64,000 bases of DNA. Source: a bacterium. GTDB taxonomy: Bacteria; Patescibacteriota; Patescibacteriia; Patescibacteriales; JAKAJF01. Under the pieces are notes generated by a model. The model had not been told where the DNA came from, did not search any database, and saw nothing but the letters and a program-made list of their open reading frames with translations. Shown here in pieces: positions 1-23,468 of the stretch; positions within the stretch are counted from its first letter, which is position 1, and each line of letters begins with the position of its first letter. The position numbers and the translations under genes are program-made. Location: assembly GCA_021788015.1 (NCBI GenBank), contig JAJYLD010000004.1:3580-67579 (forward strand), in the 5' to 3' direction.

Positions 1-141
1 AGAAACTGTGAATTAAATAAAATTTGGTTCACGATTCCTGGTTCTAAAAATCAGGAGAGGACTTTGACAATTGAAAATCAGCTAAACAAAATAAAAGGCA
101 ATTTTATATTAACGAGCACACTTTTGAAAACAAAAGTGTGG

Positions 142-3485
<3,344 letters not shown>

Positions 3486-17968: not shown

Positions 17969-18159
17969 CTTTAATATGCGGGCCACCGCCGACTTCCGCC
18001 CCCGATCATGGTTCCGGCGACACCTTTTCATTAAAAATTCCCCTTTTAATTCAAAGGGGATTAACAGCAAGGGGCGATAAAACACTTTACCGTAAAAAAT
18101 TTACAATGTCAAGCAAGGAGAAAGTCATTAATTTTAGCCTTTTTTCTTAGGTTTTAAAC

Positions 18160-18188
18160 TTGTCATGCCGGCCCTTATGCATTATAAT
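18160..18188 (+). promoter_or_regulatory. sigma70-like promoter (TTGTCA-17-TATAAT)
   Basis: 'ttgtca' 18160-18165, 17-nt spacer, perfect 'tataat' 18183-18188. Confidence 0.55.
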
Positions 18189-18225
18189 TATACTAAATAT
18201 GAATCCTTTTTGAAATTTTATGGAT

Positions 18226-18345
18226 CCCGTTAGAAGTTGCGATCGCTTCAATGGGGAAATGCGGTTACAAAAAATTTTTTTATATATACATAACATATAT
18301 AGATTGCGCAATCAAAATTTTTGATCGCGATCTGCTTCTAACGGG
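18226..18345 (+). promoter_or_regulatory. structured 5' leader: 11-bp helix 'cccgttagaag'/'cttctaacggg' closing on the start codon
   Basis: Arms at 18226-18236 and 18335-18345. Inner 'gcgatcgc'/'gatcgcgatc' helix. The ATG at 18346 follows immediately and no SD is visible. Confidence 0.5.
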
Positions 18346-19581
18346 ATGGAATTAGAAAATAAAAATGAAAAGAATGCAAAATTTTTGGCTTTTCCGAAAG
18401 GATTTTTTTGGGGCGCTTCGACCGCTTCGCATCAAATCGAGGGCGGGAACGTAAACGACTGGAGCGAATGGGAAAAATCGCCGAAAAGAATGGCGGAATT
18501 AAAAAAGAAAAATAAAAATCCGGAAGAATACATTTCCGGGAAAGCGTGCAATTCATATGAGCTTTTTGACGAAGATTTAAAACGCATAAAAGAATTTAAT
18601 TTGAACGCTTACCGTTTTTCCATCGAATGGTCGCGAGTGGAGCCGGAAGAAGGAAAATGGAACGAAGAGGCAATCGACCATTATAAAAATGTTGTAAAGA
18701 AATTAAAAGAGAACAATGTCGAGCCTTTTGTTACCGTTTGGCATTGGACAATTCCGCTTTGGGCGCGCGATCGGGGCGGCTGGTCGTCAAAAAAAATTCT
18801 TGATCCGTTTTCCCGTTTCGCGGAGAAAATGGCAAGCGAATTGAAAGATGTGAAATTTTGGATAACTTTGAACGAACCGGAAGTTTACGCCGGCCAGTCT
18901 TATCTGATTGGCATATGGCCGCCGCAAAAAAACAACCCCTTTGTTTATGTCAAAGTCATTCGAAATTTGATCAAAGCGCATAACAATATTTTTCACGTAA
19001 TCAAAAAAATCAATCTGGAAGCTAAAATAGGAATCGCCAATCCCAACATTTATTTTGAAGCCTACAAGAACAGATTTGTAAACATTGTTTTAAAAAAAAT
19101 TGTCGACTGGTGGTGGAATTTTTATTTTTTAGACAAAACGAAGAACGGGCTGGATTTTATCGGCCTTAATCATTACCACCACAGCCGGATAAATTACGGT
19201 TTCCATAAAAATGAAAATAAGATCGTTTCCGATTTCGGCTGGGAGCTTTATCCGGAGAGCATTTATCACGCTTTGATGGATTTAAAGAAATATAACAAAC
19301 CGATTTATGTCACCGAACACGGTTTGGCCGACGCGAAGGACAGATATCGAGAGTGGTTTATCGTCGAATCGTTAAAAAATGTCCATCGAGCCATTGACGA
19401 AGGGGCGAATGCGCGCGGGTATTTGCATTGGTCGCTTTTGGATAATTTCGAATGGGCGGAAGGATTCACGAAAAAATTCGGTTTGTGCGAAGTCGATTTT
19501 AAAACTTTCAAACGTGCGCCGCGGCCTAGCGCAAAAATTTACGCCGAGATTTGTAAAAATAACGGTTTTATGCTAAAATGA
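18346..19581 (+). CDS. glycoside hydrolase family 1 (beta-glucosidase-like)
   Basis: 'FPKGFFWGASTASHQIEG', acid/base 'TLNEP', nucleophile region 'YVTEHG', 'WSLLDNFEW'. Confidence 0.9.
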   Translation: MELENKNEKNAKFLAFPKGFFWGASTASHQIEGGNVNDWSEWEKSPKRMAELKKKNKNPEEYISGKACNSYELFDEDLKRIKEFNLNAYRFSIEWSRVEPEEGKWNEEAIDHYKNVVKKLKENNVEPFVTVWHWTIPLWARDRGGWSSKKILDPFSRFAEKMASELKDVKFWITLNEPEVYAGQSYLIGIWPPQKNNPFVYVKVIRNLIKAHNNIFHVIKKINLEAKIGIANPNIYFEAYKNRFVNIVLKKIVDWWWNFYFLDKTKNGLDFIGLNHYHHSRINYGFHKNENKIVSDFGWELYPESIYHALMDLKKYNKPIYVTEHGLADAKDRYREWFIVESLKNVHRAIDEGANARGYLHWSLLDNFEWAEGFTKKFGLCEVDFKTFKRAPRPSAKIYAEICKNNGFMLK

Positions 19582-19610
19582 TAACTCGATCATTCTTGTT
19601 GACCTCTATT

Positions 19611-19637
19611 AAACTCCGATTTAAAATCGGAGTTTTT
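19611..19637 (+). terminator. rho-independent terminator
   Basis: 'aaactccgat ttaaa atcggagttttt'. Confidence 0.7.
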
Positions 19638-19685
19638 CTTTTTAAGCGCATGTGATAAAATATAACTGTATATAACTGTACGAAT

Positions 19686-19995
19686 CCCGTTAGAAGCCCT
19701 GATGATAGGTAGGCGCGATCGCTTCAACGGAGACGTGAATATTTATTTTTAATGCAGATCGAAATTTTATTTGATCGCGATCCCGATACCACCAATTCTG
19801 TCGGAGTTGACTACGGGACAAGTATCATCGCAAAGAAATTATTATTAACTGCGTCTCGCCCCCGTAGTCACCGAGTTTACGAGGTGTACCCCGTTAGAAA
19901 TCTTTGGGATAAACCAAAGTAGAAATTTTTCAAGGACATATCAGTCCGGACGGAATTTCTAACGGGGCGTACTACCGGGGTCCGCTTCTAAGGGG
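19686..19995 (+). promoter_or_regulatory. structured 5' leader, expanded version of the 18226-18345 motif
   Basis: Outer arms 'cccgttagaag' (19686) and 'cttctaagggg' (19985) with one G-G mismatch. Shared 'gcgatcgcttcaayggrga' and 'ttgatcgcgatc'. Inner perfect 13-bp copy 'ccccgttagaaat' (19889) / 'atttctaacgggg' (19955). ATG at 19996. Confidence 0.45.
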
Positions 19996-20973
19996 ATGAA
20001 CTGGCTAACGGTTGCCGTAACTTCATATTTTATCAATGCCGGCGTTTATGTCGCCGATAAATTTTTATTGTCTAAAAAAATTCACTCTTCCATAGCTTAC
20101 GCTTTTTATGTGGGCATCTGGAGTATTTTTAACGCCGTTCTTCTTATCTTCGCCCCTTGGGTTCCGAATTTTAAATTTTTAATGATCGATCTTTTCGCTG
20201 GCGTTCTTTTTTTGTTGACTTTGATCTTTTGGTACAAAGCTTTGCATCAAAGCGAAGCGACCAGAGTCGTTCCGATCGTGGGCGCTCTTACTCCGATTTT
20301 CAGCTTTTTGTTGTCCAATCTTTTCTTGAATGAAAAGTTCAATATCGATCAACTGACCGCTTTTTTCATTTTGATCGCCGGCGGAGTTCTGATTTCAATC
20401 AAAGAGACCAAAGTTTATTTTTTAAAAAAAGTTTACGCGAGAGTTAAAAGCGTATGGGAAAATATGTTCGGCATAGTCAGCGCCGAACTTAGACCGACGC
20501 GGAGACTGATCGTTAATTCCGTCACTTCCGCCTTTTTTTTCGCTTTATATTATGTGCTCATGAAAAATATTTATTTGCATCAGCCTTTTATCGGCGGATT
20601 TGTCTGGTCGCGTTTCGGCACGTTTATCGGCGTGCTTTTCATTCTTTTGGTTCCCGAATGGAGGAAGCTGATCGGCGAACGCAAGGAAGAAGCGAAACAG
20701 CCGAAAAATTTGGGCTTCTTTTTGTTTGTGAGATTGATGGCCGCTTTGGCTTTTATTCTTTTGAACTGGGCGATCAGTCTTGGCAATGTGGCTATGGTGA
20801 ACGCTTTGCAGGGAGTGCAATATCTTTTTTTGATTCTTCTGGTTTTGCTTCTCTCGACCAAGTTTCCGAAAATTTTAAAGGAGGAATTGGGGGGCGGGGT
20901 TTTGATCCAAAAAATCATCGGTATCGTTTTGGTGACTCTGGGATTGTATTTATTAACCTTGCCAATTATTTAA
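19996..20973 (+). CDS. polytopic membrane protein, DMT/EamA-like
   Basis: About 10 hydrophobic segments in two halves. No catalytic motifs recognised. Confidence 0.5.
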   Translation: MNWLTVAVTSYFINAGVYVADKFLLSKKIHSSIAYAFYVGIWSIFNAVLLIFAPWVPNFKFLMIDLFAGVLFLLTLIFWYKALHQSEATRVVPIVGALTPIFSFLLSNLFLNEKFNIDQLTAFFILIAGGVLISIKETKVYFLKKVYARVKSVWENMFGIVSAELRPTRRLIVNSVTSAFFFALYYVLMKNIYLHQPFIGGFVWSRFGTFIGVLFILLVPEWRKLIGERKEEAKQPKNLGFFLFVRLMAALAFILLNWAISLGNVAMVNALQGVQYLFLILLVLLLSTKFPKILKEELGGGVLIQKIIGIVLVTLGLYLLTLPII

Positions 20974-23196: not shown

Positions 23197-23382
23197 GGAG
23201 GTTTCCTTAAACTCGCTTCGCTAGGAGTTACTTTCTTGCCCTCCAAAGGCGGGTAAATAACCAAGAAAGTAACCAAACCCGTCCGCAATGCTTCGCATAG
23301 CGATGCAGGCGGGAAAGTTTTGGGGGCTCCAATTTCCCGACATCTGTCGGGACTCAATTCCGCCTCCGAACCTCCGTGTTTT
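23197..23382 (+). ncRNA. candidate structured RNA (GC-rich multi-helix region), class unknown
   Basis: Closing helix 'ggaggtt'/'gaacctcc'. 12-bp helix 'gttactttcttg'/'caagaaagtaac'. 'cccgtccgca'/'tgcaggcggg' with a G-U pair only on the + strand. Hairpin 'tcccgaca tc tgtcggga'. Ends in 'gtgtttt'. Confidence 0.35.
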
Positions 23383-23468
23383 AAAAACTAAATTAATTCA
23401 GGTTTTAGAATTAAAAAATAATTAATGTAGATTCGAAATTTAATTTATCGAGATCTGCTGCTAAAGGG

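Follow-up and report, generated by a model that had tools for sequence, protein, structure and literature searches.

The window, i.e. the whole 64,000-nt stretch of DNA that was analysed, carries a GH1 beta-glucosidase gene (18346-19581) followed by an EamA/DMT transporter gene (19996-20973, + strand; Pfam EamA) and then by genes for a Wzy_C protein and a pseudouridine synthase; the gene order from GH1 onwards is kept in relatives. To judge by the names of close EamA homologues, the source is a Candidatus Falkowbacteria-like member of the Patescibacteria (Candidate Phyla Radiation). Each of the first two genes is directly preceded by a segment bounded by inverted repeats. The segment in front of GH1, hereafter copy 1 (18225-18346, + strand), has perfect inverted-repeat arms which span 18226-18345 and abut the ATG at 18346; a good sigma-70-like promoter lies upstream of it, and a terminator is found after GH1. 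The segment in front of EamA, hereafter copy 2 (19685-19996, + strand), is an expanded version of the same structure. Its 5' terminal inverted repeat, CCCGTTAGAAG (cccgttagaag, 19686-19696, found by arm search), pairs with the 3' terminal inverted repeat, CTTCTAAGGGG (cttctaagggg, 19985-19995), save for a single G-G mismatch, the 3' repeat having one substitution relative to the consensus CTTCTAACGGG. The 3' arm abuts the ATG at 19996. Since the N-terminus of the EamA protein, M-x-W-L, is conserved in the orthologues, this ATG is the native start of the gene. The outer element runs from a terminal T (19685) to a terminal A (19996), and with this A the EamA start codon begins.

Copies of the element in the window

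Pairwise alignment showed that the outer element of copy 2 matches copy 1 from end to end except for two insertions, one of 16 nt near the 5' arm and one of about 200 nt just before the 3' arm. The blocks gcgatcgcttcaacggaga at 19715 and ttgatcgcgatc at 19771, which a first-pass annotation of the sequence had described as shared by the two copies, are indeed common to both. At these positions lie the two strands of a second helix, which is that of subfamily A: the 5' strand together with a purine-rich block (GCGATCGCTTCAACGGAGA, 19715-19733, + strand; 89% identity to 18239-18257) and, as deduced from the alignment with copy 1, the 3' strand (TTGATCGCGATC, 19771-19782, + strand). Both the helix (GCGATCGC/GATCGCGATC) and the purine-rich block recur in loci of other genomes (L063, L080, L081, L096 and others).

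The larger insertion (~19783-19980, + strand), visible as a gap in the alignment with copy 1, has ends that resemble decayed family repeats (CCCGATACCA at 19783 and TACTACCGGG at 19970; arm search with up to 2 mismatches), but shows no clear target-site duplication, which makes it no more than a probable separate element. It contains the helix gactacggg (19809)/cccgtagtc (19861) and, further downstream, an inner element of 79 nt (19889-19967, + strand) with perfect 13-bp arms, ccccgttagaaat (19889) and atttctaacgggg (19955), flanked by TGTA (19885-19888) and CGTA (19968-19971). The inner element is a clean member of another subfamily than the outer one. On direct reading of the sequence and in the arm search, every sequence feature that the annotation had reported for copy 2 was found where it had been placed; its structural reading, a second and expanded copy of the element with an insertion holding a further, inner copy of the helix, was borne out by the alignment with copy 1.

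On its left side, copy 2 is preceded by ACGAA (19680-19684, + strand), that is an A followed by CGAA (19681-19684). We read it as what is left of the original start, decayed from ATGAA, its last four bases being the left copy of a target-site duplication, the right copy of which, TGAA (19997-20000, + strand), lies within EamA codons 1-2; the complete left and right hexamers are ACGAAT and ATGAAC. For copy 1 the corresponding duplication, TGGA, is perfect (18221-18224 and 18347-18350). Upstream of copy 2, a 10-nt sequence, ATATAACTGT, occurs twice in tandem (19660-19679, + strand) between the element and an extended -10-like box, TG-n-TAAAAT (tgataaaat, 19653-19661, + strand). That box, already picked out as a possible promoter in the annotation, is present and plausible, because in the orthologues the ATG follows a -10 box at a distance of 6-8 nt; it was probably the promoter of an originally leaderless EamA gene. 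Removal of one unit of the 10-nt repeat restores a spacing of 8 nt between the -10 box and the left hexamer A(T)GAA.

The composite formed by copy 2 is 312 nt long and does not contain any ORF reaching 60 aa. The paired-arm pattern gave 0 matches in 100 shuffles of the window and is not due to chance; the two segments also fold far more stably than shuffled sequence, 19680-20000 with z = -5.4 and copy 1 with z = -6.4. Copy 1 is predicted to form a hairpin of about -40 kcal/mol and the composite one of about -110 kcal/mol, with the start codon at the 3' foot. Within 18100-20100, no Rfam match overlapped either element, at the gathering threshold or with E values up to 10.

A third subfamily-A copy is represented by a decayed 3' end (TTATCGAGATCTGCTGCTAAAGGG, 23445-23468, + strand), which matches the end of copy 1 at 20 of 24 positions and abuts the ATG (23469) of a gene for an FAD-dependent oxidoreductase; no convincing 5' arm is left. 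This copy was spotted by eye, and a search of the window with up to 2 mismatches returned no further ones. Three gene starts of the 64-kb window are occupied by the family, and, given the decayed state of the third copy, the family has been resident in the lineage for some time.

The window has several other features. The intergenic region in front of the oxidoreductase gene (23197-23468) also has a GC-rich structured stretch around 23290-23380 (fold z = -2.4). Between the GH1 promoter and the left hexamer of copy 1, the sequence ATGAATCC followed by 13 nt (18199-18219) looks like a left hexamer to which the beginning of an element is attached, possibly left behind by an earlier insertion at the original leaderless start; an intact tandem case, ATGAAC-E-ATGAAT-E-ATGAAC (E standing for the element), is seen in L041. 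Logan short-read contigs of the source sample (L001, L002) break in copy 1 (18319) and in the inner element (around 19901-19915), so that the elements may fragment assemblies or be polymorphic in the population. Finally, the 23S rRNA match at 141-3479 spans 3339 nt against 2925 nt for the Rfam model, which corresponds to about 400 nt of insertion(s); rRNA genes of bacteria of the Candidate Phyla Radiation (CPR) often carry insertions or introns.

Distribution and anatomy of the family

Species-representative genomes were scanned for CCCGTTAGAAR and YTTCTAACGGG separated by a spacer of 50-110 nt, i.e. for exact 11 + 11-nt arms, and at least 120 genome blocks were found to carry the arm pair. 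The family sample consists of the blocks listed and is not a random one, its members all have exact 11-nt arms, and the taxon labels are those of the deposited bins. Among the matches listed, all major Patescibacteria (CPR) lineages are represented, with Saccharibacteria, many Parcubacteria lineages, Microgenomates, Berkelbacteria, Kazan and Kerfeldbacteria, and about 27 of the listed blocks are labelled Deltaproteobacteria, Planctomycetota, Omnitrophota and others; viral contigs gave 3 matches only. Several of the blocks listed hold two or three copies, and nesting of the kind observed in copy 2 was also seen in L045, L073, L090 and L112. The neighbours are unrelated housekeeping genes (pilB/pilC, murD-like, PBP, YidC, dnaN, tyrS, ABC transporters and others). 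The first-pass annotation had taken the two copies for regulatory leaders and had named a mobile hairpin present at many unrelated sites as the observation that would speak against this; the genome scan, with its at least 120 blocks, brought up precisely such a hairpin.

Clustering of 1638 ORFs from 120 loci yielded ordinary families only, and no transposase or integrase recurring near the copies. Nor was an autonomous element, or a transposase gene flanked by the family ends, found by this neighbour clustering or by searches which reached repeats up to 600 nt apart. Two kinds of candidates were rejected: unpaired arms, considered as the ends of long elements, proved to be decayed short copies, and paired inverted copies, considered as transposon ends (L028, L114), enclose genes for a Big_5 protein or pilins and no transposase. 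Literature searches of incomplete coverage, which leave an earlier description possible, returned no description of the family, and it is apparently undescribed.

The arrangement in L028 (2167-5033) deserves a word of its own: two identical 92-nt inverted copies with matching flanks bracket a 2.7-kb segment encoding the Big_5-domain protein. This segment could be a composite or an invertible one. Bracketing of the same type is also present in L022, L052 and L098.

The ends of the family read Y-CCCGTTAGAAR ... YTTCTAACGGG-R. Members are 72-131 nt long in the sample, a range set by the search pattern, and their arms of 11-13 bp pair without a mismatch in copy 1 and the inner element and with one mismatch in copy 2. 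Most copies share just the arms and a short, subfamily-specific second helix, the interiors being mostly unalignable. The base outside the 5' arm pairs with the base outside the 3' arm in 133 out of 133 copies (T:A in 68, C:G in 63).

The flanks of the elements are duplicated. In the 133 non-redundant copies among the matches listed, the hexamer to the left of the element returns on its right, as a direct repeat at offset 6 with per-position identities of 0.55, 0.81, 0.74, 0.75, 0.78 and 0.45; any other offset gives about 0.25. Both sides have the same middle dinucleotide in 91 of the 133 copies, versus 16.8 after shuffling of the partners; away from start codons the figures are 31 of 41 versus 7.2. 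A left ATGAAC recurs together with a right GTGAAN, and the simplest reading is therefore a 4-bp TNNA duplication plus a terminal Y:R pair which belongs to the element itself; we prefer it to a 6-bp duplication. The copies of the window fit this reading, with TGGA-T...A-TGGA for copy 1, CGAA-T...A-TGAA for copy 2 and TGTA-C...G-CGTA for the inner element. A recurrent variant is at odds with the simple duplication model: in L039, L056, L061, L110 and L111 the duplicated hexamer is replaced on the left by ACYTGT, placed right after a TATAAT box. The TGT of this variant can pair with the downstream ATG, which would put the whole start codon in the helix.

Empty sites and insertion at gene starts

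Loci devoid of the element were found in relatives. A family element is carried at the EamA or GH1 start by 0 of 80 metagenome loci with EamA orthologues (60-76% identity); one of these loci has a paired copy, located elsewhere. Already in the first orthologous loci fetched, the GH1-EamA spacers were short (~80-140 nt) and the motif was absent. In the EamA and GH1 orthologues (L131-L210, Falkowbacteria-like genomes) a TATAAT-like box, in many cases preceded by TG, lies 6-8 nt upstream of the ATG, which is the arrangement of leaderless mRNAs. At the pilB-pilC junction both states are observed: the site is free in L130 and L114 and occupied by the element in L060, L096 and L057. The empty L130 reads TAAccATGAAA and the filled L060 reads TAGgataaATGAAT[element]ATGAAA. 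All these comparisons of empty and filled sites are between species (45-76% amino-acid identity at the GH1 and EamA loci) and not between strains.

Many copies of the sample sit at gene starts. Of 135 copies among the matches listed, 93 have ATG or GTG at the right flank, and in 74 of them an ORF of at least 60 aa begins there, which sets the start-codon share at 55% overall; by origin, it is 60 out of 91 (66%) for the CPR-named loci against 4 out of 27 for the others. A naive model, in which every intergenic TNNA and every gene-start TGNA are equally available, gives an expectation of 2.3%; in all these figures, gene starts come from ORFs rather than from the output of a gene caller. The orientation relative to the gene is fixed in three subfamilies (15/15 for A, 8/8 for B and 5/5 for C, i.e. 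28/28), the downstream genes being unrelated. The second helices of the same-orientation subfamilies are of the types CGCGATCGC, CGCGGACGC and GGCAGAAAAA..., and a fourth subfamily is found in both orientations (L011-L130).

We conclude that the region 19685-19996 is very probably a nested insertion of non-autonomous elements with terminal inverted repeats, MITE-like in type and belonging to a large family. Their mobility is supported by the dispersal of the copies, the flanking duplications, the nesting and the empty orthologous sites. Against the mobile-element reading count the failure to find an autonomous element or transposase in the searches described above, interiors that have in common just the arms and the second helix, which are unusual for a young MITE family, a start-codon share far above the naive expectation, and the fixed orientation of three subfamilies.

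The following course of events would account for the observations. A cut-and-paste transposase acting in trans would make a 4-bp staggered cut at TNNA. If the target is the TGNA of A/TGNA at a gene start (the slash marking the left edge of the target), the upstream copy would retain the old A, giving ATGNA-Y, while the terminal purine of the element, together with the downstream copy of the duplication, would rebuild a start codon: ATG in the case of T...A elements and GTG in the case of C...G elements. The reading frame would be left untouched, and with this geometry the gene would survive the insertion. As to copy 2, insertion would have taken place at the TGAA of ATGAA, the terminal purine regenerating the EamA start codon. 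The ancestral EamA and GH1 genes would both have been leaderless, with the order -10 box, 6-8 nt, ATG. In agreement with the leaderless orthologues, TANNNT peaks 6-7 nt before the left hexamer (21 of 73 copies). Later changes in copy 2 would comprise the mutation of the upstream ATG to ACG, the 10-nt tandem duplication, the single substitution of the 3' repeat and the insertion of the segment of about 200 nt carrying a further, 79-nt element.

After insertion, the mRNA would carry at its 5' end a highly stable hairpin whose final two base pairs take in the first two bases of the start codon. CPR bacteria mostly do without Shine-Dalgarno (SD)-led initiation and often use leaderless mRNAs. An SD-like motif is found in just 6 of the 40 long ORFs of the window, from which we infer SD-independent initiation at the regenerated ATG; leaderless or SD-independent initiation seems to be the norm in this lineage. 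Translation would probably start at that ATG without an SD sequence, the A-U-rich end of the helix breathing beside an A-rich, unstructured coding start.

Known systems and alternative explanations

Bacterial MITEs are defined, with examples, in PMC3184786, and the element has the features listed there except an autonomous partner: a size below about 500 bp without a transposase gene, terminal inverted repeats, a target duplication, presence at many unrelated loci, and empty as well as filled sites. It resembles in particular the Correia/NEMIS elements of Neisseria, Nezha, RUP and ERIC, which are short, non-coding and dispersed, have terminal inverted repeats and a duplication, occur as empty and filled sites and form a long, stable RNA stem-loop (PMC3184786). 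Copies of bacterial MITEs are, moreover, often co-transcribed with neighbouring genes (PMC3184786). Whereas the known bacterial MITE families are confined to a genus or a family, the present one has identical 11-nt ends across many phyla. It differs from them also in its largely unrelated interiors, in a duplication which is TNNA and not TA, and in that two thirds of the CPR copies among the matches listed sit on a start codon, of which the element gives the first base.

Partial likenesses to other elements were noted. The target duplication of piggyBac is TTAA and its ends read TTAA-CCCTAGAAAGATA (PMC7351741); piggyBac has been paired with bacterial IS1380-like elements (PMC5718144). The family has in common with them a 4-bp T..A duplication and ends starting with CCC: members read TNNA-Y-CCCGTTAGAAAGAT (e.g. 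L081), and the family CCC...TAGAAAG recalls the piggyBac end. Unlike piggyBac, it has an additional Y, its repeat contains a GT, and its target is TNNA, not strictly TTAA; kinship with piggyBac/IS1380 is only suggested by this resemblance, which we regard as a lead. Like the Rickettsia palindromic elements (RPEs), the family consists of palindromic mobile repeats that survive in, or at the edge of, coding regions and leave the gene intact (PMC3184786); RPEs, however, are translated in frame within the protein, whereas the family elements are not in frame (element length modulo 3: 22, 31 and 20 copies for remainders 0, 1 and 2) and lie upstream of a rebuilt start codon. As with the Neisseria REP2 repeats and the Borrelia inverted repeats (promoter, RBS, ATG), the repeat gives start signals to the downstream gene (PMC3184786). 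In contrast to these, the family element gives a single base of the start codon, and no RBS or directional promoter was detected in it.

The excess of start codons and the 28/28 orientation are a hint of targeting or selection beyond simple parasitism, of a kind that known bacterial MITEs do not show. They raise the possibility, which we consider unlikely, that elements of mobile origin have been domesticated and are kept at CPR gene starts as 5' modules in which the hairpin aids expression. Such a module might protect formerly leaderless mRNAs from 5'-end-dependent decay. It might also permit a shunt-like skipping of the hairpin, by which the original 5' end, or an upstream stop codon, would be brought beside the regenerated start, with leaderless or coupled initiation as the outcome. 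The start-codon excess, about 24-fold over the naive expectation, is specific to the CPR-named loci, and the orientation bias extends over three subfamilies and unrelated genes. Transcription starting at the left A would leave only 4 nt unpaired before a helix whose terminal pair is always formed. In addition, elements lie between the pilB stop and the pilC start, where coupling would otherwise apply.

Most tests for such an active role turned out negative. Selection at the level of the RNA was rejected, as sense and antisense strands differ significantly neither in folding energy nor in G-U pairs (39 versus 33, p = 0.08). Leader-peptide coupling from the upstream ATG was likewise rejected: the frame opened by that ATG ends at scattered positions, and the TAA in the 3' arm is used by just 10. 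Retention of the left ATG in leaderless contexts showed no association with the presence of a -10 box. An outward promoter inside the element was discarded as well, the -10-like sites being 88 on the sense and 81 on the antisense strand, i.e. without directional excess; given the fixed sequence of the 3' arm, there is no room for a -10 box at leaderless distance. No RBS was detected inside the elements. The extension of the helix into the start codon follows automatically from a TNNA target and Y:R termini.

The skipping of an mRNA segment is documented elsewhere, with the gap of phage T4 gene 60, the mobile 'byp' elements of Magnusiomyces mitochondria and the CaMV shunt as examples. Like these, the family places a stable mRNA hairpin between matching codons (ATGRA ... 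RTGRA), and could in principle be skipped; in the family, however, target duplication accounts for the codon match, and testing gave no sign of selection on the upstream ATG. The strongest form of such a proposal, that CPR ribosomes initiate across the hairpin in a prokaryotic shunt or bypass, or that the element has been recruited radiation-wide as a 5' stabiliser or translation module which actively targets promoter-proximal starts in one orientation, appears to us quite improbable.

A single-strand hairpin recombination site, either integron attC-like or of the REPIN or IS200-IS605 type, moved by a tyrosine (HUH or integrase) enzyme acting on folded single-stranded DNA, is very improbable. 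In an attC hairpin, RYYYAAC is the 5' and GTTRRRY the 3' motif. The family resembles them in size range (72-131 nt, a range fixed by the search pattern and hence not independent evidence), in its imperfect hairpin with a conserved base, an internal loop, a second helix and a variable tip, and in a core, GTTAGAA/TTCTAAC, similar to GTTRRRY/RYYYAAC; the orientation bias is as in single-strand transposition, and copies occur in Deltaproteobacteria and Planctomycetota. The polarity of the core is nevertheless reversed relative to attC, the 5' arm containing GTTAGAA and the 3' arm TTCTAAC, and the variable flanking duplications are not made by such enzymes. Among the loci listed, no integrase, RAYT or TnpA gene recurs in the neighbourhoods, and the elements are not arranged in cassette arrays. 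REPIN and IS200-IS605-type elements were ruled against on the same grounds, variable and duplicated flanks and no recurrent neighbouring enzyme gene.

The weakest explanation is the one put forward by the annotation, together with covariation and ligand-binding tests: a cis-regulatory leader RNA (riboswitch, thermosensor or protein-binding) that would control GH1 and EamA by sequestering the start codon is in keeping with the strong predicted structure, the inclusion of the first two ATG bases in the helix and the promoter-like site upstream, but is highly improbable for an element which is absent from 80 out of 80 orthologous EamA/GH1 loci, precedes functionally unrelated genes in many phyla, lacks a conserved core beyond the arms and the second helix, is bordered by flanking duplications and has no Rfam match.

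To conclude, the finding made on copy 2 is real and the leader function proposed for it is wrong; copy 2 is a nested copy of a widespread hairpin transposon associated with start codons. If this is true, a single family of hairpin transposons of about 100 nt has spread through the whole CPR and several other phyla, and occupies start codons of essential genes for the pilus, the cell wall, replication and tRNA synthetases. It would probably be responsible for assembly breaks and for wrongly called starts in CPR genomes, where the upstream ATG, or a GTG created by the element, can mislead gene callers, and it would call for caution before such structured 5' regions are described as riboswitches. 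The family would also provide a natural experiment on initiation beside a very stable helix in bacteria that are poor in SD sequences and prone to leaderless expression.
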